A stretch of DNA of 64,000 bases from a virus (lineage: Duplodnaviria; Heunggongvirae; Uroviricota; Caudoviricetes), in IMG/VR virus record IMGVR_UViG_3300050120_000279. One strand, given 5' to 3'. The notes under the pieces were generated by a model. That model made no database searches. It saw only the letters and a list, made by a program, of their open reading frames with translations, and was not told the DNA's origin. Below, piece by piece: positions 1,717 to 26,505 of the stretch (the stretch's first letter is position 1; every line of letters begins with the position of its first letter). Made by a program: the position numbers and the translations under genes.

Positions 1717-1804
1717 CGCCCGGTGGTGGAATTTGGCAGACACACCAGCTTGAGGTGCTGGCGCCCGTAAGGGCATGAGAGTTCGAGTCTCTTCTGGGCG
1801 ACCA
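1717..1804 (+). tRNA. tRNA-Leu (anticodon GAG), type II with long variable arm
   Basis: 7-bp acceptor stem CGCCCGG/CTGGGCG (one GU), anticodon stem CCAGC/GCTGG with loop TTGAGGT, variable arm GCCC-GTAA-GGGC, T-arm GAGAG-TTCGAGT-CTCTT, discriminator A and encoded CCA. Confidence 0.7.
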
Positions 1805-2687: not shown

Positions 2688-2764
2688 GCCTCTATAGCTC
2701 AGTGGACTAGAGCACGGAGCTTCTACCTCCGGTGTCGGGAGTTCGAATCTCTCTAGGGGCACCA
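2688..2764 (+). tRNA. tRNA-Arg (anticodon TCT)
   Basis: Acceptor GCCTCTA/TAGGGGC, D-arm TAGCTCAGTGGACTAGAGCA, anticodon stem CGGAG/CTCCG with loop CTTCTAC, T-loop GTTCGAATC, CCA encoded; starts immediately after the stop of the upstream gene. Confidence 0.8.
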
Positions 2765-4050: not shown

Positions 4051-4127
4051 GCGCGATTAGTTCAGTGGTTAGAACGGGAGACTCTAAATCTCTGTCGTCG
4101 GGGGTTCGAATCCCTCATCGCGCACCA
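4051..4127 (+). tRNA. suppressor tRNA, anticodon CTA (reads UAG amber)
   Basis: Acceptor GCGCGAT/ATCGCGC, D-arm GTTC-AGTGGTTA-GAAC, anticodon stem GGAGA/TCTCT with loop CTCTAAA (U33, CUA, A37), T-arm GGGGG-TTCGAAT-CCCTC, discriminator A, CCA encoded. Confidence 0.6.
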
Positions 4128-5169: not shown

Positions 5170-5663
5170 TGCAAGTACTCTACTGTAGTGACGGCAGAGA
5201 AGTTCTAGTGGATGATGAAGACTATCCATTGTTGAAGCGGCATACTTGGACATCTGTTCCAGGACGCAATACCTGGTATGCGCTGACGACATTAGGGGCG
5301 AAGACAGTGATGATGCATTCCCTGATCAGTCCAATGCCGTCTCCGTTTCATACAGATCACTGGGACGGCAATGGTCTAAACAACCAGAAGCTAAACCTTC
5401 GCCGAGCGACCATCTCTGAGAATGCAATGAACAGGGGACCAGAAGCTGGCAAGTTGTACAAAGGAACTCATGCCTATAAAGGCAAGTTCCGCGCAAAGAT
5501 TCAATACGAAGGTAAGCAGGTCAATCTCGGTACATTTGTCACCGAGGAGGAAGCTGCAAAGAGGTACGACGAAGCTGCGCTGGAATTCCACGGCAAGTTT
5601 GCTTATCTCAATTTCCCTTTGTGTTTACCAGTCTCGGGAGCCTCGGCTCCTCAACACACGTAA
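5169..5663 (+). mobile_element. HNH homing endonuclease with C-terminal AP2 DNA-binding domain
   Basis: HTDHWDGNGLNNQKLNLR (HNH_3-type) followed by the AP2-like YKGKFRAKIQYEGKQVNLGTFVTEEEAAKRYDEAALEFHGKFAYLNF. Confidence 0.7.
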
Positions 5664-5689
5664 GAGAAACAGACTATTTGTTCTGTACA

Positions 5690-5723
5690 CAAGACCTCGG
5701 TTCGATTCCGAGCGGGTCCACCA
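5690..5723 (+). other. tRNA-like 3' fragment (T-arm CTCGG-TTCGATT-CCGAG, acceptor 3' strand CGGGTCC, A, CCA) with no matching 5' half
   Basis: Canonical GGTTCGATTCC T-loop and encoded CCA; no complementary 5' acceptor strand within 120 nt upstream. Confidence 0.3.
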
Positions 5724-5814
5724 TAGAGCCTACCGGCTGCACGTTTGTCGGGATGGACAACATCTTCGGATGTCCCGAATTCATTCTGCCGACACAGTGT
5801 CCGGGTGTGAGTGA

Positions 5815-6033
5815 TTGCATTCGGTAAGTTCTATTGTGGGCCCGTCATGGTTTCGATTGGGTATTGGGTGGATAGCTGACGTGTCGGATCGGAAGCCCAC
5901 GTTACGGGAAGCCAAGACTACAACTGCCAAAAGCAATGTTGTTGCCGGTATCAAAGCCAAGGTGCTGTCTTTCGGCGCGCGCGTAAGCGCTGCGACCGCG
6001 ATGCCCACCATGGGTTTTGCCGCTGCTGCCTAA
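5815..6033 (+). CDS. hypothetical small protein (hydrophobic segment, Ala-rich C-terminus)
   Basis: 72 aa ORF in a 450-bp gap; followed by hairpin GCCCCG-n7-CGGGGC at about 6080..6098. Confidence 0.25.
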   Translation: MHSVSSIVGPSWFRLGIGWIADVSDRKPTLREAKTTTAKSNVVAGIKAKVLSFGARVSAATAMPTMGFAAAA

Positions 6034-6116
6034 GAAACAGCAACAGAGTTAGAGCCACTCTGTCCCTCAGAGCTCTCAAGCCCCGTGTAAAGCGGGGCAC
6101 TTCTATTGGAGGCAGC

Positions 6117-6395
6117 ATGACAGATCAGCTGTATATAGTTCTGCATACTCATCGATTTGGCAGCAGCACCTATGTTGTCAAGAGCGATCGTATGCCAACG
6201 GAACTTCAAGTAATCCGTTGTTTGGAACTCGACTATGAAGGGACTCGGGATGAGTCTATTGCCATCAATCTCTTGGAATCAAATGAGCCAGCGATTCTGG
6301 ATTACATTCCTGGATTAGATGATGCTGACTTCCGTTCCGAGGTGGACTACAACGGGACGGCTCTTCGTGATCATGAGGACGACGTCGATGGCTAA
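6117..6395 (+). CDS. hypothetical protein
   Basis: 92 aa ORF, GGAGG RBS. Confidence 0.4.
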   Translation: MTDQLYIVLHTHRFGSSTYVVKSDRMPTELQVIRCLELDYEGTRDESIAINLLESNEPAILDYIPGLDDADFRSEVDYNGTALRDHEDDVDG

Positions 6396-6687
6396 ACTGA
6401 TCCGGTTCGATGGTACGGAAGAGGAAGTCTTTCCGGCCGACAAGAAGAGTGGGTTCAGTCTGGGCGAGATGTATGCATTGCTTGGATGCGAGATGATCGA
6501 AGTGGTCTATCTCGCCAATGAGAAAGAGATCCTAATCATCGATGAAGAAGGCAAGCTCCGTCAGGATTGGCTTGAACGACTCAACGAGAAGGCTACTCAG
6601 TTGTTCTTCGAAGGGCGAGTTCCGAACGGTGACATCATCACCGGTAATGCTCTCCTGATAGTGGATGATGGTACAGAGTTTCAGTAA
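6388..6687 (+). CDS. hypothetical protein
   Basis: ATG overlapping the stop of the upstream gene; 99 aa. Confidence 0.4.
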   Translation: MAKLIRFDGTEEEVFPADKKSGFSLGEMYALLGCEMIEVVYLANEKEILIIDEEGKLRQDWLERLNEKATQLFFEGRVPNGDIITGNALLIVDDGTEFQ

Positions 6688-6693
6688 CAACTA

Positions 6694-6723
6694 AGCCCCG
6701 GTCAATTGATCGGGGCTTTTGCT
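6694..6723 (+). terminator. rho-independent terminator (AGCCCCG-loop-CGGGGCTTTTGCTTTG)
   Basis: GC-rich 6-7 bp stem followed by a T-rich tract directly after the stop at 6687. Confidence 0.55.
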
Positions 6724-6746
6724 TTGCCCACTCCAGTATTCCCCTG

Positions 6747-7013
6747 ATGGGAGGATCTCTAATGCCAGATGAAACTGAAGCTATCCGCCGCGGCCTACTG
6801 GCTGCGATCAATGACGAGCCCCAGGATCGTACAGCCCTCGAGCAGTTCTACGGCAAAGTGTGGACGTTAGCCGAATTGGGCGAAGAGTTTGTCATCAAGC
6901 AGTTTGCAGCTCCCCTCATCGTAGTCAAGCGTTTATCAGACGGCGTGCTCGGAACGATGTACTTCCAGCACAGCCCACGTTTCTACTTCAACTTCAAGGA
7001 AGACACGAAGTAA
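6747..7013 (+). CDS. hypothetical protein
   Basis: 88 aa ORF after terminator; GGGAGG RBS. Confidence 0.4.
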   Translation: MGGSLMPDETEAIRRGLLAAINDEPQDRTALEQFYGKVWTLAELGEEFVIKQFAAPLIVVKRLSDGVLGTMYFQHSPRFYFNFKEDTK

Positions 7014-8281
7014 TGGCAATCATTTACTACGATGGCTGCGACGCATGCGCACAGCGAAAATGGCTGAACGATGATCGAACAGATCTGGAAGCAGCTAATC
7101 CTTCTGTGATCAAACATACCTGCATTCTAGGGCAGGAAAGAAAGGCTTCAACAAGTATGGAAACGCACCCAATTCTGTTTCACATGGGAGCCAATGGTCT
7201 CCAACAATGGCGTGTTTGGACAGTCGGCGCTACCATCTTCTCCGAACACGGTCTCGTCGACGGGGCCAAGGTCAGTCACGAGAAGGTTTGTGAGTCCAAG
7301 AACGTCGGTCGTTCCAATGAGACGACACCTGAAGCTCAAGCAGTAGCGGAAGCTGCCGCTCTGTGGGTTCACAAGCGTGAGCGCAAGTACACGGAAGACC
7401 CTGCCGGAACCAAGACGGACATCTTCTTGCCCATGCTGGCGCCGAATGACAAGTGGCCAGAGACGAAGAAGCACATCAAGTATCCTGCGTTTCTTCAGCC
7501 CAAGTTGGACGGTAATCGCTCCGTCGGCCGGCTTGATGGCGATGAGGCTGTGCTGACCTCCCGTGAGGGCAAGCCCCAGGACTTCCTACCGCATATCAAT
7601 GCGGAGCTAAAGGCCCTGGGTCTCAGCGAGGACTATTTCCTCGATGGCGAGCTCTACTGTCATGGACAGAGCCTGCAGACGATCAACAGCTGGATCAAGA
7701 AGGCTCGGCCGGAGTCGATGCAGATCAAGTACCACATCTATGATCTCCCCGTCGTCAATGGCAAGACGGACCTTTCCCTAGCCGATCGCCTGGCGAATCT
7801 GGACCAGCTCTTTCTTGACACCTTCGATGGCAAGTGCCAGTTCCTTGAACTCGTACCAACCGAGATCGTCAATAACGAAGAGGAAGTGATGACCTGGTTC
7901 AAGCACTACCGCGACCTTGGCTACGAGGGAGTGATGGTCAAGAACACGGCCGGAAAGTACAAACAGAAGAGTCGCTCGAAGGACGTCGCCAAGGTCAAGC
8001 CGTTCGAAGACGCCGAATTCAAGGTGGTTGGTTTCACGGGCATGGAAGTCTACAAGGACGAAGTGCTCTGGATCTGCGAGACCAAGGAAGGCAGGACCTT
8101 CAAGGTCACGCCGAATGGTTCACGGGAACAGCGCAAGGAATGGTTTGCCACGGCTGACCAGTACATCGGTCGGATCCTGACGGTGACGTTCATGGGTTAT
8201 ACCGAGGACGGTATCCCGAACATCGCCAAGGGCAAAGCTTTCCGCCTGGAGAGTGATCTTCCTAAAGAGAGCGCGGCGTGA
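7013..8281 (+). CDS. ATP-dependent DNA ligase
   Basis: Adenylation motif I KLDGNR, motif III FLDGELY, motif IV YEGVMVK, motif V AKVKPFED; TAATG overlap with upstream gene. Confidence 0.85.
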   Translation: MAIIYYDGCDACAQRKWLNDDRTDLEAANPSVIKHTCILGQERKASTSMETHPILFHMGANGLQQWRVWTVGATIFSEHGLVDGAKVSHEKVCESKNVGRSNETTPEAQAVAEAAALWVHKRERKYTEDPAGTKTDIFLPMLAPNDKWPETKKHIKYPAFLQPKLDGNRSVGRLDGDEAVLTSREGKPQDFLPHINAELKALGLSEDYFLDGELYCHGQSLQTINSWIKKARPESMQIKYHIYDLPVVNGKTDLSLADRLANLDQLFLDTFDGKCQFLELVPTEIVNNEEEVMTWFKHYRDLGYEGVMVKNTAGKYKQKSRSKDVAKVKPFEDAEFKVVGFTGMEVYKDEVLWICETKEGRTFKVTPNGSREQRKEWFATADQYIGRILTVTFMGYTEDGIPNIAKGKAFRLESDLPKESAA

Positions 8282-8487
8282 TCCAGCTTTGGCTGCGACG
8301 GATCGTTTCTCTACCCTTCCTGCTCATTACCCTGGCGGTATGGATCATCGGTGACTTGCTCCGGTTCTGCAGCTACTTGCTTATCGGAACTATCGAGTGG
8401 ATCGAAGACGGCGATTGGCCTGGATTCAGCTGGCGCAAAGCTACCCAGATGTCACGGATAGCTTTTCTCTGGTGGCCTAAATACTAA
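8278..8487 (+). CDS. small membrane protein (two predicted TM helices)
   Basis: 69 aa hydrophobic ORF; ATGA overlap with the ligase stop; contains the AGCTTTGGCTG motif at codons 3-6. Confidence 0.4.
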   Translation: MIQLWLRRIVSLPFLLITLAVWIIGDLLRFCSYLLIGTIEWIEDGDWPGFSWRKATQMSRIAFLWWPKY

Positions 8488-8495
8488 GGAGAACT

Positions 8496-8897
8496 ATGTC
8501 ACAAAGTGCTGGCGCTGCTGGCGTCTACGGCATCCTGCTGAATGATCTCGACTCCGCGGAAGTAGAGTTGATCGTCAAGAAGCTGGATGCCGCCCAGCTC
8601 GATTACACAATGGAAAACGAGTGGGATGAACTTGAGAATGGTCCTGAAGATGTCGAGGCAATCAAGCTGCTTCGAGCAGAACTGGATGCCTACTTCATCG
8701 GTAAGGGTGTTGTGATTCCGGAGAAGGCCAAGATTCATTGGACTGCCTTTGATGACGAGCGCCCTGCGTCTTGTGCCACCGATGGTGAGCAGTGGGTTCT
8801 TGGCTTTGGTCTTTTCACACTACCCAGTGAGTACCCGCAGCTGGATAAGACATTCACTGATTTATCTGCCTGGTACACCTGGGCTTGGATGGGATAG
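8496..8897 (+). CDS. hypothetical protein
   Basis: 133 aa ORF with GGAGAA RBS; ends with TAG. Confidence 0.4.
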   Translation: MSQSAGAAGVYGILLNDLDSAEVELIVKKLDAAQLDYTMENEWDELENGPEDVEAIKLLRAELDAYFIGKGVVIPEKAKIHWTAFDDERPASCATDGEQWVLGFGLFTLPSEYPQLDKTFTDLSAWYTWAWMG

Positions 8898-8903
8898 GGC
8901 ACC

Positions 8904-9551
8904 ATGGGAATCATCGAACGGATCCTCTTGAAGCTACTTCGTCATGAGGACATCACAGATAAGGCGGGGGTTCTTTACCTCCGCCGATTCTTCCTCATCA
9001 ACAGAGACAAGAAAGTCACCTGCCATGACGGTACAGTGCAGGAAAAGCGTTCCTGGCATGTCTACCTCCACAAGTTCTATCGCGGCGACACAGACAGGCA
9101 TCTCCATGACCATCCCTGGCCCTTCAAGAGCCTGATGCTGGCCGGAGGATACTGGGAGCACCGCGCGAACCCTGATCACGCCCGTTGGACTGCTCTGCAG
9201 GCTGAGGGTGGCATCGGTGACATGTGCCGGCTGATCGAGATCGATCTCATGGGTGGTACGGCTGGCCTTTATGACCCGCTGCTGTCCGAAGTCAACGAGA
9301 TCTACTGGCGTGCAGGTCAGCGCAAGAAGCCTGAACCTCCGCTGACGATCCGCAAGTGGTATCGACCTGGGTCATTCATCGGCCGCGGCGCCCGCTGGAC
9401 GCATCGCGTCGAGCTTCCTCAGTGCAAGTTTGCCTGGACCCTGGTCTTCACTGGAGTCAAGGAACGTGACTGGGGCTTCCACACGGAAAACGGCTGGTGC
9501 TTCTGGAAGAACTACTCCGAAGGCGTCTGCGCTGTAGGTACTGAGCAATAG
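8904..9551 (+). CDS. hypothetical protein (contains HLHDHPW His-rich motif)
   Basis: 215 aa ORF. Confidence 0.4.
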   Translation: MGIIERILLKLLRHEDITDKAGVLYLRRFFLINRDKKVTCHDGTVQEKRSWHVYLHKFYRGDTDRHLHDHPWPFKSLMLAGGYWEHRANPDHARWTALQAEGGIGDMCRLIEIDLMGGTAGLYDPLLSEVNEIYWRAGQRKKPEPPLTIRKWYRPGSFIGRGARWTHRVELPQCKFAWTLVFTGVKERDWGFHTENGWCFWKNYSEGVCAVGTEQ

Positions 9552-9563
9552 AAAGGCACGACG

Positions 9564-10808
9564 ATGTTCAATGATCCGGAATCAGACGCCCACATGGCGA
9601 TCATTACCCTGGAGAACGCAGGCTTCAAAGCTCATGCCATTGGAGGCTGTGTCCGGGATTTGATCCTGGGGCGGAAACCCAAGGATTATGACCTCGTCAC
9701 GAATGCTACGCCGGAAGAGATCATCAAACTGTTCCCTAAGACGGTCAATGTCGGCGCTGCTTTCGGTGTCATTGTAGCCGTTCTGGAGCATTCTCAGGTT
9801 GAGATCGCCACCTACCGTGCAGACGGAGTCTACTCGGATGGCCGTCGTCCGGACACCGTGATCTATGCCAAGACCCTCGAAGAAGATGTCAGACGCAGGG
9901 ACTTCACCATGAATGGCATTGCGGCCAGCGCCCTTGGCAATGGCGTCCACATGGACTCATGGACTAAGGACTATGTCCATGGGTACAAGGACATCGAAGC
10001 GAAGATCATTCGAACGATTGGCGATCCGGTTGAACGGTTCACCGAGGATCCTCTCCGCATGCTGCGTGCCATCAGGTTCTCGGCCCAGCTGGGGTTCACC
10101 ATCGAGAAGAAGACTTTTGCCGCTATCCAGAAGTGTGCCAAGCTCATCCAGAAGGTTAGTGCTGAACGGGTTCGGACAGAACTGATCAGCCTTCTCACCT
10201 CAGATGAACCAGGTATAGGTATCGCCAATCTTCTGCGGTCGGGGTTGCTGAACTATCGTATGCAGTGGCTCCTGGACCTCAAGTTCCCGCGTCTAATCAC
10301 ACTGCTGGAGCTTGTCAAGCACTCCGAACAGGATAGATATCCCTCAGGTTTCATGCTCGGAGTGTTTCTGGAGTCATTGAAGCCGGCAATGCTCGGTGTG
10401 GCCATCAAGGATCTGAAACTGTCCTATGGCGAAGAGGCTTGCATCAAGAAGATGTGGGACTGGCCCATGTTGCAGGATCTTCGATACGCTGCGGCACCGT
10501 GGCGTCCTCGTGTGAAACGTGCCATGCGCGAGCCGTACTTTGCTCAGGCGATGCGACTCTTTGAGTTGGATCAACTGAGTGGTATCGGACTCAATCCAGA
10601 ACCATTCCAAGAGGTCAATGACCTGGTGACGATTTGCAAACAGGAAGGTATTTATCCTGCAGCTTTCGTGGACGGTGATGACCTGATGGAGTATGGATAC
10701 GAGGGCAAAGCCATCGGCGACGCACTCTACCTGCTCGAATCCGCCCAGCTGGATGGCGCCATCGACAGTAAAGACCAAGCACTACGGTACATCGGAGCAA
10801 TCAAATGA
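9564..10808 (+). CDS. cca: tRNA nucleotidyltransferase (CCA-adding enzyme / poly(A) polymerase head-domain family)
   Basis: GGCVRDLILGRKPKDYDLVTNATPEE matches the class II nucleotidyltransferase head motif; RDF..NG region conserved. Confidence 0.8.
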   Translation: MFNDPESDAHMAIITLENAGFKAHAIGGCVRDLILGRKPKDYDLVTNATPEEIIKLFPKTVNVGAAFGVIVAVLEHSQVEIATYRADGVYSDGRRPDTVIYAKTLEEDVRRRDFTMNGIAASALGNGVHMDSWTKDYVHGYKDIEAKIIRTIGDPVERFTEDPLRMLRAIRFSAQLGFTIEKKTFAAIQKCAKLIQKVSAERVRTELISLLTSDEPGIGIANLLRSGLLNYRMQWLLDLKFPRLITLLELVKHSEQDRYPSGFMLGVFLESLKPAMLGVAIKDLKLSYGEEACIKKMWDWPMLQDLRYAAAPWRPRVKRAMREPYFAQAMRLFELDQLSGIGLNPEPFQEVNDLVTICKQEGIYPAAFVDGDDLMEYGYEGKAIGDALYLLESAQLDGAIDSKDQALRYIGAIK

Positions 10809-11308
10809 GCGCACCACGAACCATTGAGTACTTCGAAGGCAGGTTCTTCTTCCTGTCGAACTTCTTCCCCATCCTGCTTGAATACGATGGCGCGGTCTAC
10901 CCGACCAATGAGCATGCGTTTCAGGCAGCGAAGACAATCGATCCGTTGGAGCGTATTGTGTTCCAGGATCCAAAGTCCTCGCCTTCGGATGTGAAGAAGC
11001 TCGGCCGAGCCATCACCCTCCGGCATGATTGGGAACAGGTCAAGAACTCCATCATGAAGGAGCAGCTGTTGGAGAAGTTCTCCGACAGGCACCCCATCTA
11101 TCTGAAGGGATTGCTCAACACCGAGGACCGCACTCTTGTTGAGGGTAACCTCTGGCATGACAACATTTGGGGCAACTGCCATTGCATGGACAATCTCACT
11201 GTCCGCGTTCCATTCGGATCAAAGGCATTCTGTGTTAGTCCTGGACAGAACCGACTGGGTCTGGCTCTGATGGAAGTCAGAGCAGAACGTCTCGCATGCC
11301 AGTCCTAG
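10805..11308 (+). CDS. NADAR (YbiA-like) domain protein
   Basis: EYFEGRFFFLSNFFP...YPTNEHAFQAAK matches the NADAR/DUF1768 signature; ATGA overlap with cca. Confidence 0.75.
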   Translation: MSAPRTIEYFEGRFFFLSNFFPILLEYDGAVYPTNEHAFQAAKTIDPLERIVFQDPKSSPSDVKKLGRAITLRHDWEQVKNSIMKEQLLEKFSDRHPIYLKGLLNTEDRTLVEGNLWHDNIWGNCHCMDNLTVRVPFGSKAFCVSPGQNRLGLALMEVRAERLACQS

Positions 11309-11796
11309 CAGTCATCGGGTCGCGATCATTCAACTACCAGGACCGAGTCTGGGAATATCTGGACAAGGTCCTGGAGAAGACCGAGAACCTAAGTCTGGTC
11401 TCGGGCGCCTGCCCTCAAGGCGCTGATGCCCTCGCAGAATCCTGGGCAAAGAGGAGGGGTGTTCCTATCCTGTTGTATCCGGCCGACTGGTCGAAGGGTA
11501 AGGGCGCCGGCTTTGCACGTAACCAGAAGATCGTCAAGGCAGCTGATGTCGTGGTGTGTTTCTGGGATGGCACGAGCAAGGGAACTGTGGATTCAATCGA
11601 ACGTGCATGGAGATTGGGGATTAAGGTCATGGTTTCGACCCCTCAAAACCCAAAGATGGTGCTCGTCAAAGACTTCATGGAACTTGCGCAGCGTGCTTGT
11701 TTGCACCCCGGAATGAGGGACTGGTCTACAGGAACTTCGACCTTCTGTCCGGACTGTAATCACGTGTTCAACGTACAAGACAACCCAACTCAGTAG
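11296..11796 (+). CDS. DUF2493 (YspA-like SLOG family) Rossmann-fold protein
   Basis: VIGSRSF...SGACPQGADALAESWAKRRGV...YPADWSKGKGAGFARNQKIV matches the DUF2493 consensus. Confidence 0.65.
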   Translation: MPVLAVIGSRSFNYQDRVWEYLDKVLEKTENLSLVSGACPQGADALAESWAKRRGVPILLYPADWSKGKGAGFARNQKIVKAADVVVCFWDGTSKGTVDSIERAWRLGIKVMVSTPQNPKMVLVKDFMELAQRACLHPGMRDWSTGTSTFCPDCNHVFNVQDNPTQ

Positions 11797-11806
11797 GGAG
11801 CAGCAT

Positions 11807-12250
11807 TTGTTGAACGACAACACTTTAGAAGAAGTTACACCGAGTTCTTTCGCTATGGCGGAAGAGCGGTTCTATGTAATTGTTCCCGAGACTGTCCAAT
11901 CTGACATGACAAGTCACGATATGGAGTCCGGAAGACTCATGGCTCAGTCGTTTCATATAGGCAGAGTCGTTGAGTATCGAAGAGCCATGGCTGGAGCCCA
12001 GTCACAGGACATCACAACGATCGTTCTCGCGGTACGCAATACCCTGGAACTGAACAAAGTGATGACTGAGCTGGTAGGACAGCAGTTAGTTGATGACGGT
12101 AAAGGGAAGCCTCACTTCGCCGTCTCGCTATATCGTGACCACAACCCCCAGGTCTACCAGACGGACAGCCGTGTACTGACTGCTCTCTGTGTAGGTCCGG
12201 TTATCCGTTCCGCCGTCGAACACATCCTGGGACACCTGGAGACGTACTAG
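11807..12250 (+). CDS. peptidyl-tRNA hydrolase, PTH2 family
   Basis: MAQSFH..., ITTIVLAV, VSLYRDHNPQVYQTDSRVLTALCVGPV and C-terminal LGHLETY align to the PTH2 core (VAAQCSHA...[23 protein letters not shown]...TGHLKLY). Confidence 0.7.
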   Translation: MLNDNTLEEVTPSSFAMAEERFYVIVPETVQSDMTSHDMESGRLMAQSFHIGRVVEYRRAMAGAQSQDITTIVLAVRNTLELNKVMTELVGQQLVDDGKGKPHFAVSLYRDHNPQVYQTDSRVLTALCVGPVIRSAVEHILGHLETY

Positions 12251-12287
12251 CTTTGGCTGGACTTCCCCTGCACTGGATCCTAAAGAG

Positions 12288-12713
12288 ATGAAACGACACA
12301 CCTGTTTTGCCCTGCTGTTCTTGTCTCTCTCAGGGTTTGCCGCCATCCCCTCTCAAGGGGTTGTTGGTATGGCCACTTGGTATGGAAAACAACACCATGG
12401 GAGAAAGACCAGCAGTGGTCGCCGATTCAACGAACATGAGCTCACTGCCGCGTCTCCTACGTTGCCCTTCGGAACCCGCGTTCACGTCACCTTCCTGAAG
12501 ACTGGAAGGTCCGTTGACGTCGAGATTACCGATCGAGGTCCCTTCGGTAAGCACCGAATCCTCGATCTTTCTGAGGAAGCAGCGGATGAGATCGGACTCA
12601 AGCCCTACGGCGTAGGACGGATCAAATTAGAGGTCATCAATGAGCGCCAGCTTTCAGCAAATCACTCTTACCCTCGTCGTGAAGGAAGAGGACGTCGAAG
12701 CAGTGAAACGTGA
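12288..12713 (+). CDS. secreted RlpA-like double-psi beta-barrel protein with signal peptide
   Basis: N-terminal signal peptide; ATWYG..GRKTSSGRRFNEHELTAASPTLPFGTRVHVT..GRSVDVEITDRGP matches the RlpA/DPBB motif. Confidence 0.65.
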   Translation: MKRHTCFALLFLSLSGFAAIPSQGVVGMATWYGKQHHGRKTSSGRRFNEHELTAASPTLPFGTRVHVTFLKTGRSVDVEITDRGPFGKHRILDLSEEAADEIGLKPYGVGRIKLEVINERQLSANHSYPRREGRGRRSSET

Positions 12714-12834
12714 ACTGAACCAGTCCCTCGATTGTATCGGGGAAGAGTATCAGGTCCACAACGACAAGATCGAGGAAGAGGACTGCGATAGCCCTGAGTC
12801 CGAAGATCTGTACGAGTTCGAAGACGCGGCGTAA
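12640..12834 (+). CDS. small acidic protein
   Basis: 64 aa, Glu/Asp-rich C-terminal half; starts inside the 3' end of the RlpA-like gene. Confidence 0.3.
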   Translation: MSASFQQITLTLVVKEEDVEAVKRELNQSLDCIGEEYQVHNDKIEEEDCDSPESEDLYEFEDAA

Positions 12835-12886
12835 CAACCGCAAGCCGTAACAATCAACCGGACAAGTTCCGCTAGGAGAAAGAATC

Positions 12887-13375
12887 ATGGCATCAGTCGC
12901 AAGCATCACCCTGTTGGGCAACCTCGGAAAAGACCCAGTCCTCACCAAGGGTTCCGATGTATCGAAGTCATACTGCGATCTGTCGATTGCAGTTGAGATC
13001 TATGACGGCAAAGACGCCGCCGGCAAAGGCCAGTACAAGACCAACTGGTGGAACCCGCGTGTCTTCGGCCAGCAGGCGGAGTACATTGCCGGTGCAGCCA
13101 AGAAGGGCAACGCTGTTCTCGTGCTCGGCGATCTCGTCATCAATGAGAAGGACGGCAAGCAGTACAACAACGTCCGCGCCACCACTGTCCGCCTCGCTAC
13201 TCGCAACGAGAAGGGTTCTGGGGATCAAGCACAGCCCCAGGGCGAACAGACTCAGCAGACCAGCTCGGCGCCTGTGGCGCAGCAGGCAAGCGCTCCTGCC
13301 ACGGCCGCAGCTCTCCCGCCGGCTACTGTCCATGCCACCACGATGGAAGCAGTCGACGAAGACCTGCCGTTCTAA
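12887..13375 (+). CDS. ssb: single-stranded DNA-binding protein (SSB)
   Basis: OB-fold N-terminus (ITLLGNLGKDP), Gln/Pro-rich linker and acidic C-terminal tail ...DEDLPF. Confidence 0.8.
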   Translation: MASVASITLLGNLGKDPVLTKGSDVSKSYCDLSIAVEIYDGKDAAGKGQYKTNWWNPRVFGQQAEYIAGAAKKGNAVLVLGDLVINEKDGKQYNNVRATTVRLATRNEKGSGDQAQPQGEQTQQTSSAPVAQQASAPATAAALPPATVHATTMEAVDEDLPF

Positions 13376-13387
13376 CCACCAACCGTT

Positions 13388-13407
13388 GGGGAGGGGAAAC
13401 CCTCCCC
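13388..13407 (+). terminator. stable hairpin GGGGAGGG-GAAA-CCCTCCCC after ssb (terminator or RNA stability element; no clear U-tract)
   Basis: Perfect 8-bp GC stem with GNRA tetraloop 13 nt after the ssb stop. Confidence 0.35.
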
Positions 13408-13420
13408 GATATGAGGTCTC

Positions 13421-13747
13421 ATGTCCCTGAATAAAGCAATCAATTCGGTTGTTGCCCTCATCGAGGGACGAACTGATATCGCCAAAGAGATCTTCCGGGA
13501 TCCAACATCAGATGTTTCGAACATTCCTGATGTCATGGCACGCCTCGATGCCGCCGTTGAGAAAGCAGCCGCTAAGGCTATCCGTAATGGACTCATCCGC
13601 GCACTCGCCATAAGACCTGACGTAAAGATCTCCCCTAATGTCCTATCCCCCGAGAGGGCTTTCTACGACGGGGTCAACGCTATGGAGAAGCTCTTCGGCG
13701 ATATTGCCTTCACCTTGGAGCGTCATGCATCTGACGATCAATACTGA
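13421..13747 (+). CDS. hypothetical protein
   Basis: 108 aa ORF. Confidence 0.35.
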   Translation: MSLNKAINSVVALIEGRTDIAKEIFRDPTSDVSNIPDVMARLDAAVEKAAAKAIRNGLIRALAIRPDVKISPNVLSPERAFYDGVNAMEKLFGDIAFTLERHASDDQY

Positions 13748-14282
13748 CGGTGGCGGTCAAGCGAGTTCCGACGTCGGCGGTGACGCTGCGGCAGCATATG
13801 TCGTCCAGACTATCGAAGGGACTTATCTGGGAAGCTCCTCGTGTCAACTGGTGGGAACTAACAATGATGCCGAGTACCTTGGGGTCCTCATGGCCGTTAG
13901 GGACCTACGCGATCAACTCATTGCTCCCCACGAGGATATCGAAAGCGTCACTTTCATCGCTGATTCGCAGCTCATCGTCTACCACCTCACCGGCGACTGG
14001 AAGTGTAAGAGTTCTAAACTCCGAGTAACTCGGGACGAGATCCGAGCAATCGTAAAAGCTCTTCCTTTCCCAGTGTCCTTCACTTGGATGCGACGTGAAC
14101 ACAACAAGAACGCTGACACCCTTTGTGCCGATGCCATGGTGAACGGGCCGAAGCTCGACTTTACTGCGCCGATCCCACGTGATCCGCGTGTCAAGAAAGA
14201 TGGTACCCGTGCCAGAATCAGCAGAATCAAAGACTTCGCTTTCGCTATTGAACCTTTTGAGACTAGCGAGTACCGGCTATGA
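13725..14282 (+). CDS. rnh: ribonuclease H (RNase HI-like)
   Basis: INTDGG...GTNNDAEYLGVLMAV...DSQLIVYHLTGDW...WMRREHNKNADTLCADA matches the RNase H catalytic DEDD layout. Confidence 0.7.
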   Translation: MHLTINTDGGGQASSDVGGDAAAAYVVQTIEGTYLGSSSCQLVGTNNDAEYLGVLMAVRDLRDQLIAPHEDIESVTFIADSQLIVYHLTGDWKCKSSKLRVTRDEIRAIVKALPFPVSFTWMRREHNKNADTLCADAMVNGPKLDFTAPIPRDPRVKKDGTRARISRIKDFAFAIEPFETSEYRL

Positions 14283-14298
14283 AGATGGCTGGCTCGAC

Positions 14299-14547
14299 AT
14301 GTACTTCAAGAAGAAGACTGGTGAGCCCAAACGGCATGTAACTCGCGGCGGGGATACATTGGCACGCTTCATCGTCATAGAGCTGGCCGAAACCTTTGAC
14401 GAAGATATGAGTCAGGATGAACAGATCGAAGAAGCACAGCGTGCCCTTCAATCGGCGATCGTTGATCTCGAAGATGTGATCACTGCCCTTGGTTCCCCTG
14501 CAATGTTAGCTCAAGTCTTAGCGTGTAAGAAGGATAAGAAGTCATGA
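14299..14547 (+). CDS. hypothetical protein
   Basis: Internal ATG of ORF 14179..14547 downstream of the RNase H stop. Confidence 0.3.
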   Translation: MYFKKKTGEPKRHVTRGGDTLARFIVIELAETFDEDMSQDEQIEEAQRALQSAIVDLEDVITALGSPAMLAQVLACKKDKKS

Positions 14548-14741
14548 AGACATTCTCCGTAACCTTTACTTTTCGTGAGCTTCCCAGTCCCCATATGTAC
14601 CAGTCGACGACAGTCGACGCCAGCAGTATTGGCACTGCGGTGCGCCGCGCGGAGGAGATTATCCGTGCTAGGCCACATGTCAAAGGACGACGTATCACGC
14701 AGTGCGAGATTGATGTGAGCGAGTCTGGTGCTAGTACGTAG
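14544..14741 (+). CDS. hypothetical protein
   Basis: 65 aa, ATGA overlap with upstream gene; TAG stop. Confidence 0.35.
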   Translation: MKTFSVTFTFRELPSPHMYQSTTVDASSIGTAVRRAEEIIRARPHVKGRRITQCEIDVSESGAST

Positions 14742-14980
14742 TGCCTAACATCGCCGATAACTATCCGGCTGGTGCCTTTGACGGAGATAGCTGCTTCAGC
14801 ATTGGCCATATGGGTGGTTGCGGAGAAGACTGCAAAGTCCTCCACCGCGGCGAATGCGATATCGAAGAAGAGATGTTCGTTCAAATAGGCATCTGGCCCA
14901 ACAAGTTCCATGGTCCGGACTGGCCCCCAATCTGTGAAGAACCCCTGTATATGAAAAGGCTGGCTGATGACACCTATTGA
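14741..14980 (+). CDS. hypothetical Cys-rich protein
   Basis: 79 aa ORF starting with GTG directly at the upstream stop. Confidence 0.3.
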   Translation: MPNIADNYPAGAFDGDSCFSIGHMGGCGEDCKVLHRGECDIEEEMFVQIGIWPNKFHGPDWPPICEEPLYMKRLADDTY

Positions 14981-15524
14981 AGAGTTGAAGATGTACTGCA
15001 GCCAGTTTCGTATCGGGCAGGTTGTACGTACATCGCAAGGCTACGGCGTTGTCGAAGCAATCGATGCCGGGTTTCCTGGAGCATTTATCCGTGTACAGAT
15101 CGATGGTGCCGGCTCACCGGAGTTCAGCGCTCACAACGTGTATCAGCTTTCAGATCTGGACCGTACAGCTCGCCAAGCTATAGCTGAAGCTTGGGGTATC
15201 AACGCTTTCGGCAAACTGGAAGTTCATAATGTAGCCCAGCGAACGATTCGACTCAATGAAGAGTCTGTTGAAGCCTGTCAGGTAGCCAACGTGGACCCTG
15301 ATCTTCTTCACGAACAGATCGACGAAGTCTATAGCCGGCCTGTTGGCGAGCTCAACCAGGAGATTGGCGGGATTGGTCTCTGTGTTTTGCTGCTCGCTGC
15401 TTCTGCTGGACTTGATGCTGATCAAGAAGAGAACCGGGAAGTGAAACGGGTTCTCAACAAGCCGGTCAAGTACTTTACAGCGCGTAATGCTGACAAGAAC
15501 GCGCGTGGTTTCAGCGCAGTCTAG
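14967..15524 (+). CDS. hypothetical protein
   Basis: 185 aa ORF. Confidence 0.4.
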   Translation: MTPIEELKMYCSQFRIGQVVRTSQGYGVVEAIDAGFPGAFIRVQIDGAGSPEFSAHNVYQLSDLDRTARQAIAEAWGINAFGKLEVHNVAQRTIRLNEESVEACQVANVDPDLLHEQIDEVYSRPVGELNQEIGGIGLCVLLLAASAGLDADQEENREVKRVLNKPVKYFTARNADKNARGFSAV

Positions 15525-24054: not shown

Positions 24055-26505
24055 GTGCAGAAGAAGTCAAGTAGCAAAGCTGTCGACGAGCCAGTGTCGT
24101 CACAGATGCAGATCAAGAAGCGCAATGGTTCTTTGGAGCCTGTCGACCTGAACAAGATTGTCCGTGCAATCGGACGTTGCTGTAATGGTTTACCCAATGT
24201 CGATCCGATTCGTGTGGCCTCAAAGACCATCAGCGGTATCTTCAATGGCGCAACCACCCAGCAGCTGGATGAACTGTCCATTCAGACGGCCGCGGCGCTT
24301 ATCTCAGAGGAGCCAGAGTACTCAAAGCTGGCAGCGAACCTCATGGCGGAGTACATCCGTAAGGAAGTAGCCAACCAGGAGATCCATTCGTTCTCCCATG
24401 CCATGACCGTGGGCCATGAGCAGGGGCTGATCAATGATCGTCTTCTGGAGTTCGTCAAGATCAATGCACGCAAGCTGAACAACGCGATCAAGGAAGAGCA
24501 CAGCGAGCTGTTCGAGTACTTCGGTATCCGGACTGTTTACGACCGCTATCTTCTTCGTCATCCTGTGAGCCGTAAGGTGATCGAGACACCTCAGTACTTT
24601 ATGATGCGTGTCGCTGCTGCCTTGGCTATGACCGTGGCCGATGCTCTTGAGACCTACCGTCTCATCAGCAACATGAACTACATCCCGTCGACCCCGACGT
24701 TGTTCAATGCGGGCACGACTCACGAGCAGATGTCCAGCTGCTACCTAATGGCTCCTCCCGAGGACTCCATCGAGGGCATCTACGAGATCTATGGTGAGAT
24801 CGCATTCAACTCCAAGTTCGCTGGTGGTATCGGCAGTCCCTGGGGTACGATTCGGTCGGCTGACTCGCTCATCAAAGGCACCAACGGCAAGTCCAATGGC
24901 ATTCTCCCCTGGCTCAAGACACTGGACTCGTCCGTGGCTGCAGTCAATCAGGGCGGACGCCGTAAGGGAGCCGCCGCGGTCTACCTACCAACTTGGCATG
25001 CTGACATCGAGGATTTCCTTGAGCTGCGCAACAATACCCTCGACGCGAACAAAGCGACACGCAATCTGAACCTGGCCCACTGGGTCCCGGATCTGTTCAT
25101 GGACGCGGTTGATCAGGACCGCGACTGGTATTTGTTCGATCCCAAGGATGTACCTGACTTCAACGAGAGCTTCGGTATCGATTTCGACAACGCCTATTCA
25201 GACGCTGTCACTGCCGGCAAGTTCAAGAAGAAGGTCAAGGCTCGTGACCTGTATGCCAAGATGATGCTTACCCTCGCAGAAACCGGCAACGGTTGGATGT
25301 GCTGGTCTGATCGGTCAAACGTCAAGTCGAACCAGACGGGTATGGGAGATGTCATTCATTCCTCGAACCTCTGCACAGAGATCCTCGAGGTGACCAAGCG
25401 CAAGGATTCAGACACCGAGACGGCTGTCTGCAACCTGGCTTCCGTGGTTCTTCCGTCGTACTGGGACCGTATCAAGGGCTCGTTCGATTACAAGACCATG
25501 GTGAAGGATATCAAACAGATCGTCCGTCAGCTGGATCGCGTGATCGACCTGAACTTCTACCCGATCGTATCGGCTGAGGTCTCGAACAAGAAGTGGCGTC
25601 CCATTGGTTTGGGTGTCATGGGCCTACAGGATGTGTTCTTCCTCGCCGGCCTGCCGTTCGATAGTCCTGAGGCCGTATCGCTCTCGACGAAGATCCAGGA
25701 AGAGATCTACTACGCGGCAATGTCTGCGTCATGTGATCTCGCGGAGAAAGAGGGTTCGTTTCCCAACTTCTCCAAGACCCGAACAGCTCTGGGCAAGTTG
25801 CAGTTCGATCTCTGGGACGTAGTTCCGGCAGACAAAGCACGCTGGGATGCTCTCAAGGATCGTATTGCCTCAACAGGCCTGCGAAACTCGTTGGTCATCG
25901 CCATCGCGCCGACGGCTACCATCGGATCTATCATCGGAGTCTACGAGTGCATCGAGCCGCAGGTTTCGAACCTGTTCAAGCGCGAGACACTGTCGGGCGA
26001 GTTCATCCAACTCAACCGGTACCTGGTAGCCGACCTCAAGAAGATCAATCTCTGGAACGAGGACATCCGTTCCAAGATCAAAATCGCTGATGGGTCGATT
26101 GCAGGCATCGAGGAGATCCCGGTGAACCTCCGACTGCTTTACCGCACGGTCTGGGAGCTGTCACAGAAAGACCTGATCGACATGGCGGCCGCCCGCGGCC
26201 CTTATATCGACCAGAGTCAGTCTCTGAATCTGTTCATCGAGAATCCTACGGTGGGCAAGCTGTCCTCGATGTACATGTATGCCTGGAAGAAGGGCTTGAA
26301 GACGACGTACTACCTGCGCTCGCGCGGTGCTTCGTCGATCGCCAAGACCACGGTAACCTCTGCTCCTACGACCAGTGCGTTTCCTCCAGCCATGCGTGAA
26401 GTGAAGACAGACCCGGCGCTGCAGCATCTTCTGGATGCAGCAGCGATGGGCGCGGCAATAGCGTGTTCTCTTGAGAACCCTGAATCGTGTGAGGCTTGTC
26501 AGTAA
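24055..26505 (+). CDS. nrdA: ribonucleotide reductase class Ia large subunit NrdA with N-terminal ATP-cone
   Basis: ATP-cone (QIKKRNGSLEPVDLNKIVRAI), catalytic NLCTEI, C-terminal redox Cys pair; GTG start with AAGGAA RBS (alternative ATG at 24106). Confidence 0.9.
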   Translation: MQKKSSSKAVDEPVSSQMQIKKRNGSLEPVDLNKIVRAIGRCCNGLPNVDPIRVASKTISGIFNGATTQQLDELSIQTAAALISEEPEYSKLAANLMAEYIRKEVANQEIHSFSHAMTVGHEQGLINDRLLEFVKINARKLNNAIKEEHSELFEYFGIRTVYDRYLLRHPVSRKVIETPQYFMMRVAAALAMTVADALETYRLISNMNYIPSTPTLFNAGTTHEQMSSCYLMAPPEDSIEGIYEIYGEIAFNSKFAGGIGSPWGTIRSADSLIKGTNGKSNGILPWLKTLDSSVAAVNQGGRRKGAAAVYLPTWHADIEDFLELRNNTLDANKATRNLNLAHWVPDLFMDAVDQDRDWYLFDPKDVPDFNESFGIDFDNAYSDAVTAGKFKKKVKARDLYAKMMLTLAETGNGWMCWSDRSNVKSNQTGMGDVIHSSNLCTEILEVTKRKDSDTETAVCNLASVVLPSYWDRIKGSFDYKTMVKDIKQIVRQLDRVIDLNFYPIVSAEVSNKKWRPIGLGVMGLQDVFFLAGLPFDSPEAVSLSTKIQEEIYYAAMSASCDLAEKEGSFPNFSKTRTALGKLQFDLWDVVPADKARWDALKDRIASTGLRNSLVIAIAPTATIGSIIGVYECIEPQVSNLFKRETLSGEFIQLNRYLVADLKKINLWNEDIRSKIKIADGSIAGIEEIPVNLRLLYRTVWELSQKDLIDMAAARGPYIDQSQSLNLFIENPTVGKLSSMYMYAWKKGLKTTYYLRSRGASSIAKTTVTSAPTTSAFPPAMREVKTDPALQHLLDAAAMGAAIACSLENPESCEACQ

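Follow-up and report, generated by a model that had tools for sequence, protein, structure and literature searches.

The association of SLOG with NADAR domains in viruses has already been described by comparative genomics, in a survey of 21,191 viral proteomes (Iyer, Burroughs, Anantharaman and Aravind 2022, Viruses 14:1977; PMC9503650). That paper describes viral SLOG domains as mostly YpsA-like and as occurring in fusions with, or next to, NADAR, Macro and DUF4326 domains, and reports that these domains co-occur above expectation. In it, phages were proposed to deploy these proteins against ADP-ribose-derived host signals or toxins, with labour divided between the domains; NADAR activity was not yet established in 2022, and an association of NADAR with RNA repair was proposed (PMC9503650). 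NADARs are now reported to hydrolyse guanine-ADP-ribose on DNA (PMC11543638, PMC11125620) and to reverse guanosine ADP-ribosylation on RNA (PMC11833690), and in vitro this activity on guanine-ADP-ribose was seen with all four subtypes tested, YbiA and a phage enzyme among them (PMC11125620). In 2024, T4 gp30.3 (AdfN) and two unrelated phage enzymes, NADAR-Bas32 and NADAR-Bas60, were reported to take ADP-ribose off guanine in phage DNA and to restore phage growth on DarTG1 hosts (PMC11257639). Here, a NADAR gene and an overlapping SLOG gene are examined in a 64,000-nucleotide (nt) stretch, hereafter the window, of the tailed phage record IMGVR_UViG_3300050120_000279, the source contig counterpart of which is L001.

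An earlier note, made from the sequence of this DNA alone, had read a NADAR gene followed by a DUF2493/SLOG gene into positions 10805-11796, and this observation is confirmed. Two open reading frames carry the motifs quoted there, the NADAR frame at 10805-11308 (+ strand, 167 amino acids) and the SLOG frame at 11296-11796 (+ strand, 166 amino acids). The former matches PF08719 with 79.8 bits against a gathering threshold of 35.1 (E=3.6e-22), over profile positions 12-161 of 163; the latter matches PF10686, YAcAr (formerly DUF2493), with 69.8 bits against a cut-off of 28.2 (E=1.7e-19), in agreement with the precomputed match on the source contig. The note's further statement that NADAR enzymes remove ADP-ribose from guanine agrees with published biochemistry (PMC11543638, PMC11125620). 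The elements of the pair are:

10805..11308, + strand: NADAR of YbiA type, a predicted ADP-ribosyl N-glycohydrolase (Pfam, model and active-site alignment)
11296..11308, + strand: 13-nt overlap of the NADAR stop codon (TAG) with the SLOG start, ATGCCAGTCCTAG
11296..11670, + strand: SLOG core domain (YAcAr/DUF2493 family), residues 1-125 of 166
11698..11763, + strand: C-terminal Cys/His cluster of SLOG (C135, H137, C151, C154), from alignment

The explanation favoured here, to which about an even chance is given, is that the two genes are an optional counter-defence module: NADAR would strip ADP-ribose from guanine in phage nucleic acid, with the co-translated SLOG protein as a nucleotide-binding partner in the same pathway. 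The module would be an accessory of an uncultured tailed phage, co-transcribed with a nucleotidyltransferase of the CCA-adding type and a gene resembling peptidyl-tRNA hydrolase 2 (PTH2). From the biochemistry of the family, NADAR is expected to release ADP-ribose from guanine in nucleic acids by hydrolysing the N-glycosidic linkage, an action that would undo the modification of phage DNA (or RNA) by a host ADP-ribosyltransferase such as DarT1. A place for SLOG in this pathway is suggested by domain fusions and by fold; its ligand or substrate may be a molecule derived from ADP-ribose, or it may attach to single-stranded nucleic acid in the manner of DprA. Overall, the counter-defence interpretation, which the earlier note had also advanced, is partly supported.

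The NADAR product is a structurally intact member of its family. Its AlphaFold model has a predicted local distance difference test score (pLDDT) of 91.2, and Foldseek aligns it with E. coli YbiA (2b3w, TM-score 0.74) and with 8bau, a NADAR bound to ADP-ribose (TM-score 0.70), at a probability of 1.00, returning no fold other than the alpha+beta fold of NADAR at E<1. The nearest solved relatives by sequence are likewise E. coli YbiA and the Phytophthora nicotianae NADAR, the identities to 2b3w and 8bau being 33% and 28%, respectively. In the P. nicotianae enzyme, ADP-ribose is contacted by E43, K50, R79, W89, R93, E125, D130 and W133 (PMC11543638), for which alignment to 8bau gives the window residues E36, K43, R68, W76, K80, E113, D119 and W122. 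Each of the eight contacts is retained, with a single Arg to Lys change (R93 to K80), and E36, K43, W76, K80, E113, D119 and W122 are invariant across 32 relatives. The position of E125 separates NADAR subfamilies, with Glu in the YbiA type, Asp in DarT1-associated enzymes and His in phage enzymes of T4 type (PMC11543638). Because E113 sits at this position and the TIGR02464 model ('riboflavin biosynthesis intermediates N-glycosidase') is passed, at 74.3 bits barely over its cut-off of 73.7, the protein can be assigned from its sequence as an intact YbiA-type NADAR, neither DarG1-type nor T4-type. In line with this assignment, PF08719 is the sole Pfam match at E<=0.01, leaving the DarG1-type family PF22397 unmatched, and the catalytic position holds Glu, not Asp; nor is there an ADP-ribosyltransferase gene beside NADAR, the direct neighbours being the nucleotidyltransferase and SLOG. 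Among phages, the window NADAR is approximately 38% identical to NADARs of Escherichia and Salmonella phages with genomes of 110-118 kb. In a PADLOC search for defence systems it matched a candidate system (PDC-M42C) only weakly, and SLOG was unmatched. The protein also carries three cysteines after its WG motif (C125, C127 and C142; residues 125-142, window 11177-11230), of which, among the 32 relatives, C125 is invariant and C127 nearly so, giving the consensus WGxCxCxxxxC. The longer loop in which they lie is modelled at low confidence (pLDDT approximately 66) and may be a metal or disulfide site without counterpart in E. coli YbiA.

The SLOG protein has the Rossmann-like fold of its family, and an exhaustive profile search retrieved 38,481 cluster representatives. 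In an alignment of 20 relatives, G8, R10, G37, D44, W65, G68, G72, R75, N76, F89 and G96 are invariant and sit in the motifs GSR, SG..G.D, ADWSKGKGAGFARN and FWDG.S.GT. Comparison of the structure with solved proteins gave the following table values:

TM1055 (LOG-like): 11.7
YpsA: 11.3
DprA: 11.1-11.3
ShosA: 11.3
ThsA SLOG domain with 3'cADPR (a cyclic ADP-ribose): 10.0
LOG enzymes: 9.5

The protein is therefore about equally similar to DprA, YpsA, LOG-like proteins and the SLOG domain of ThsA: the fold is settled, and single-stranded DNA, an ADP-ribose derivative or a nucleotide are all possible ligands. LOG-type enzymes have the catalytic motif PGGxGTxxE, which includes a glutamate. In its sequence the window protein reads DGTSKGTVDS at this point, with no Glu three residues past GT, and an Asp close by varies among family members. 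Beyond the core, a C-x-H...C-x2-C arrangement is kept in P0121, P0122 and P0123; it is confined to forms of 165-166 amino acids and absent from shorter relatives. The cluster, modelled at low confidence (pLDDT 52-62) with two short strands, is possibly a small zinc knuckle. No experimental study of a YAcAr protein from a phage turned up in the literature library searched.

Within the phage lineage the arrangement of the two genes is well conserved. The junction ATGCCAGTNCTAG is present in every contig with readable DNA, namely L103, L002 (with a GTG start), L004 and the window, and, as judged by coordinates, two JGI contigs have the 13-nt overlap too. In the window, no Shine-Dalgarno-like 4-mer is found at -18 to -4 of the SLOG start, and a GGAG precedes the NADAR start by 8 nt. 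The earlier note had called the genes translationally coupled; the overlap is real and conserved, and because the genes overlap and a ribosome-binding site is missing before SLOG, we infer that SLOG synthesis is tied to NADAR translation, a coupling with which these data are consistent. The order nucleotidyltransferase, NADAR, SLOG and PTH2-like gene recurs in L103, L002, L004 and the two JGI contigs, a single-stranded DNA-binding protein (SSB) gene and an RNase H-like gene following wherever the contig extends far enough. Identities to the window NADAR and SLOG proteins are 87% and 86% in L103, the closest relative, and 51% and 63% in L002; across the lineage members bearing the pair (window/L001, L103, L002, L004 and two JGI contigs) NADAR identity ranges from 51 to 87% where measured. 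NADAR and SLOG proteins identical to those of the window are encoded on two contigs, one from Logan (18.8 kb) and one from JGI (85 kb). The two genes are genuine and evolve under purifying selection, since the ratio of non-synonymous to synonymous substitution rates (dN/dS) against L103 is 0.09 for NADAR and 0.18 for SLOG.

The link between the two domains is also found beyond this lineage, in the form of fusions. A tblastn search with both proteins joined matched 1,372 isolate phage records, just two of which were covered over both halves, and approximately 20-30 records match at two separate places. An estimate of genome-level co-occurrence from record counts (467 NADAR and 636 SLOG records against a union of 1,010) was dropped because thresholds and query lengths differ. 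The two records covered over both halves are those of the near-identical N4-like Pseudomonas phages CL (OR687461.2; L006:5998-6963) and CRC2, which encode a single protein of 321 amino acids in which an N-terminal NADAR precedes a C-terminal SLOG; the lineage SLOG profile scores 91.6 bits on the C-terminal half of the CL fusion. Phage CL is a culturable N4-like phage (Schitoviridae), and the linker of its fusion, of approximately 60 residues, contains a Cys-rich stretch, CSCGKGFCSLVDMKCSNC, the window SLOG having its C-terminal C-x-H...C-x2-C instead. A metagenomic fusion, P0371 (275 amino acids), joins NADAR and SLOG in the same order and is 36% identical to the window pair. Among the best 150 of the 38,481 SLOG cluster representatives, 41 are multidomain proteins, whose partners include DUF4326 (6), DarT1-type NADAR (3), NADAR (1), RNase H (3) and DUF488 (4). 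As NADAR is a rare domain, three or four NADAR fusions among 150 proteins would far exceed chance. A functional link between NADAR and SLOG is credible on this comparative evidence, because independent fusions recur despite the rarity of adjacency.

Among the other viral NADAR loci, L095 (a 125-kb viral contig) has a YAcAr gene two genes upstream of NADAR in a cluster with NAD synthase: in the co-directional series at L095:2733-5557, two unknown genes separate YAcAr SLOG from NADAR, and one more separates NADAR from NAD synthase. Two further NADAR loci have weak SLOG-like matches approximately 2 kb away. The gene that follows NADAR in Brevundimonas phage Bajun, a partial SLOG by tblastn, was not counted as it had neither Pfam nor lineage-profile support. 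Direct neighbours of NADAR in other viral contigs include NAD synthase (4), NAPRTase (3), NAMPT (2) and Thg1 (2), and more rarely PolyA_pol (1), PTH2 (1) and YqeY (1). The PolyA_pol case is L080, a 328-kb viral contig in which a CCA-type nucleotidyltransferase comes directly after NADAR (L080:4001-5701).

In the window, two co-directional genes enclose the pair:

9564..10808, + strand: class II nucleotidyltransferase of the CCA-adding enzyme type, at the head of the overlapping run
11807..12250, + strand: divergent PTH2-like protein, next co-directional gene after SLOG

The TGA stop of the nucleotidyltransferase overlaps the NADAR ATG as ATGA, and this gene is found immediately 5' of NADAR or SLOG in all lineage relatives. 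Its product has a PolyA_pol head (PF01743, 112.9 bits) and an RNA-binding domain (PF12627, 62.1 bits), and matches the tRNA nucleotidyltransferase family phrog_2244 (E=1.9e-58). The best equivalog, PRK13299 (NCBIfam CCA tRNA nucleotidyltransferase), scores 254.6 bits, under its cut-off of 290, and PcnB models match too, so that CCA addition and poly(A) addition are both compatible with the model scores. The PTH2-like gene scores 18.7 bits against PF01981, below the cut-off of 23 (E=0.002), with an alignment that spans nearly the whole profile. Approximately 40 of 120 homologues (31-59% identical) have a precomputed PF01981 match, and the best solved-structure match of the lineage profile is the PTH2 protein 2zv3, a weak one (E=0.05). 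The start of this gene is uncertain, at the TTG at 11807 or at the ATG at 11855 that was called on L001. The earlier note had presented embedding between a CCA-adding enzyme and PTH2 as part of the system: both genes do flank the pair, with the PTH2 match below cut-off and CCA addition one of two possible activities of the upstream enzyme, and the flanking is synteny of one phage lineage.

Further out, the near neighbours include genes for a RecD2-type helicase and an RNase H-like protein as well as those for DNA ligase and SSB; on the source contig there is also a uracil-DNA glycosylase (UDG). Upstream, at 8904-9551 (+), lies a gene whose product of 215 amino acids matches phrog_4786 strongly (E=2.5e-38; family label 'cysteine dioxygenase') and has no Pfam or NCBIfam match; the gene is also kept 5' of the nucleotidyltransferase in L002. 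A DPBB/RlpA-like protein of lytic transglycosylase type, with a hydrophobic N-terminus, is encoded at 12288-12713 (+) between the PTH2-like gene and SSB, a position that a DPBB gene takes in most lineage relatives. A Pfam scan of the 35 other + strand open reading frames between 87 and 40320 gave 39 families, considered here for the best 25 and as a set, not frame by frame. They include Nuc_deoxyri_tr2 (resembling nucleoside deoxyribosyltransferases of DrHyd type, E=3.4e-26), D123, DUF4031, a radical-SAM/4Fe-4S protein, an SPFH domain protein (87-659) and standard genes of replication and nucleotide metabolism. The frame at 24055-26505 was considered as a DNA polymerase that could serve as a taxonomic marker and rejected; its product is the large subunit of ribonucleotide reductase, which says nothing on the host. 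Megablast of 9500-12300 against isolate phages gave no match, so that there is no close cultured relative at the DNA level, and promoter and terminator scans of 6000-15000 gave nothing above shuffled expectation.

Upstream of these genes, on the same strand, lie three tRNA genes and a tmRNA gene. ARAGORN calls tRNA-Leu(GAG) at 1717-1804 (+) and tRNA-Arg(TCT) at 2688-2764 (+), together with a tRNA with anticodon CTA at 4051-4127 (+), an amber suppressor labelled 'Pyl' by the program, with an encoded CCA end and an Rfam tRNA score of 64.9 bits; at the Rfam gathering threshold the Arg and suppressor tRNAs were confirmed and the Leu tRNA was not reported. Of the 56 genes called on the + strand, 14 end in TAG; NADAR, SLOG and the PTH2-like gene are among them, as are two genes upstream of the nucleotidyltransferase, and amber suppression would lengthen those proteins, NADAR by 26 residues. 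The long open reading frames show no sign of in-frame TAG recoding. The tmRNA is of the permuted, two-piece type (5656-6033, +; ARAGORN span 5631-6124; RF04321, 76.1 bits against a threshold of 47), and ARAGORN gives its tag peptide as AATAMPTMGFAAAA. Together, the tmRNA, the tRNAs, the CCA-type enzyme and the PTH2-like gene form a translation-support cluster.

A number of observations weigh against a counter-defence role for the pair. The relative L003, whose SLOG protein is 60-61% identical, keeps SLOG without NADAR: at L003:2799-8139 SLOG follows the nucleotidyltransferase gene directly, the two sharing 8 nt (ATGCATAA), and a ribonucleotide reductase of 961 amino acids is inserted between SLOG and the PTH2-like gene. 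When 80 viral-contig loci were fetched around the closest NADAR relatives, of which 71 remained after de-duplication with a downstream neighbour that could be scanned, SLOG was directly beside NADAR in none of the 71, and in none of 15 viral SLOG loci was there a NADAR within 4 kb. No Macro, Nudix, ADP-ribosyltransferase or NAD-salvage gene is among the best 25 of the 39 Pfam families in the 35 frames described above. The sole solved sequence relatives of the SLOG profile are DprA proteins (4ljr, 4ljk and 5mll at approximately 4e-7; 3uqz at 5e-4), and DprA binds single-stranded DNA, not ADP-ribose; a search of the solved structures with the single SLOG sequence gave noise only. Finally, cells expressing YbiA were not protected against DarT1 in vivo (PMC11125620), and the physiological substrate of a YbiA-type enzyme may therefore be a different one; the T4 NADAR, too, was active in vitro and gave no cell rescue from DarT1 (PMC11125620). 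Activity of both enzymes in vitro without rescue in cells indicates that substrate access matters.

The co-occurrence analysis that the earlier note had proposed yielded fusions (P0371 and those of CL and CRC2, the only two of the 1,372 isolate records covered over both halves), direct adjacency in none of the 71 NADAR loci and a NADAR within 4 kb in none of the 15 SLOG loci. Because L003 has SLOG but no NADAR, NADAR is a dispensable insert, SLOG is independent of it and the pair does not make up an obligatory two-component system. Support for joint action of the two proteins comes from the independent fusions. The retention of SLOG without NADAR in one relative also makes the module optional, with a pattern of gain and loss as expected of counter-defence genes.

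The similarity to DprA leads to a different, unlikely, reading in which SLOG is a DprA-like accessory of the replication module, binding single-stranded DNA or mediating recombination, and its adjacency to NADAR is inherited gene order without shared function. Besides the solved relatives and the state of L003, this would fit the sub-threshold DprA Pfam matches in 31 of the 41 multidomain SLOG relatives, the ligase, SSB, RNase H-like, RecD2-type helicase and UDG genes of the neighbourhood and the fusion of SLOG domains to RNase H, to the ICP1 helicase HelB (10.1101/671271) and to DciA. However, the window SLOG has no PF02481 (DprA) match at E<=0.01, the remote similarity to DprA being one of the profile. 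At 166 amino acids, against 216-353 for solved DprA chains (220-350 for the full-length protein), it is also missing the extra domains of full-length DprA; its fold is equally near to YpsA, LOG-like proteins and the ThsA domain that binds cyclic ADP-ribose, and independent fusions to NADAR, DarT1-type NADAR, DUF4326 and DUF488 are unexpected for a plain recombination mediator. The surroundings point in another direction again, towards an island for maintenance of translation and tRNAs, in which NADAR would de-ADP-ribosylate guanosines of tRNA or other RNA, or clear ADP-ribose by-products of RNA repair, and the substrate of SLOG would derive from RNA or AMP, both proteins working together with the CCA-type enzyme, the PTH2-like hydrolase, the tRNAs and the tmRNA. 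The flanking of the pair by the CCA-type and PTH2-like genes, the three tRNAs and permuted tmRNA 5-9 kb upstream and the Thg1, PolyA_pol, PTH2 and YqeY neighbours of NADARs elsewhere are in keeping with such an island, as are the action of NADARs on RNA guanosine ADP-ribosylation (PMC11833690) and the RNA-repair association proposed in the 2022 survey (PMC9503650). It is nevertheless distinctly unlikely: NAD-salvage genes are the commoner NADAR neighbours, no RNA ligase, Tpt1/KptA, 2H or polynucleotide kinase is among the families listed for the window, a CCA-type enzyme was near SLOG in none of the 15 other viral loci, and such islands may just gather unrelated accessory early genes.

The narrow pass of TIGR02464 and the position of E. 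coli YbiA as closest solved relative raise the further idea that NADAR is a metabolic housekeeping enzyme like the plant and bacterial COG3236 proteins, an N-glycosidase of reactive riboflavin-pathway intermediates unrelated to defence. This is highly improbable and is ranked the least likely explanation, as the families listed for the window include no riboflavin genes, the NADAR gene is gained and lost between close relatives and fused to SLOG in other phages, and YbiA itself hydrolyses guanine-ADP-ribose in vitro (PMC11125620). The counter-defence module, for its part, has a more specific variant, doubtful at best, in which SLOG is the specificity subunit of a two-part de-ADP-ribosylation machine and, by binding single-stranded nucleic acid or released ADP-ribose, would make a YbiA-type NADAR that is ineffective in cells efficient in vivo. 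If this were true, the proteins that repeatedly fuse NADAR to SLOG would represent the same machine in one chain.

Phage NADARs are a proven answer to DarTG1, yet YbiA and, outside its own phage, T4 gp30.3 work poorly in cells. A NADAR and SLOG that are coupled, and sometimes fused, offer a handle on whether the YAcAr SLOG of phages provides substrate targeting or signal degradation, and the window is a clean natural test case for the function of these abundant proteins.

Comparison with the individual systems brings out what is shared and what is particular to the window. Its NADAR resembles AdfN, NADAR-Bas32 and NADAR-Bas60 in being a stand-alone protein of a lytic-type phage genome with its catalytic residues kept; those enzymes have no SLOG partner, whereas the window NADAR has one (PMC11257639). 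Unlike phage NADARs of T4 type, which have His, and DarG1-type enzymes, which have Asp, it has Glu (E113) at the distinguishing position (PMC11543638), and in this Glu-type active site it is like E. coli YbiA and the P. nicotianae NADAR (2b3w and 8bau). The latter two are cellular proteins, YbiA being encoded in a LexA-controlled operon (PMC11125620), and the window NADAR differs from YbiA in its longer insertion after the WG motif with the three cysteines. The window SLOG, for its part, is unlike DprA in standing alone, without the extra DprA domains, and unlike ThsA in having no Sir2 effector, its context being neither Thoeris nor competence.

The closest match is with the associations of the 2022 survey, which likewise links YpsA-like viral SLOG to NADAR in tailed phages and predicts, by computation, a role against host immunity based on NAD or ADP-ribose (PMC9503650). 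The census of partner domains obtained here (DUF4326, NADAR and nucleic-acid enzymes) reproduces the network given in that survey (PMC9503650). The earlier note had held that this pairing is not a described system, and in this it was mistaken: the survey already reports SLOG-NADAR fusions and neighbourhoods together with the same counter-defence idea (PMC9503650), and the neutralisation of DarTG1 by phage NADARs (PMC11257639) takes away further from its novelty. Compared with the fusions in the text of that paper, the link in the window is of a different kind, a conserved 13-nt overlap within a run of CCA-type, NADAR, SLOG and PTH2-like genes, and it is in this form that the locus adds another example to a pairing described by comparative genomics in 2022.

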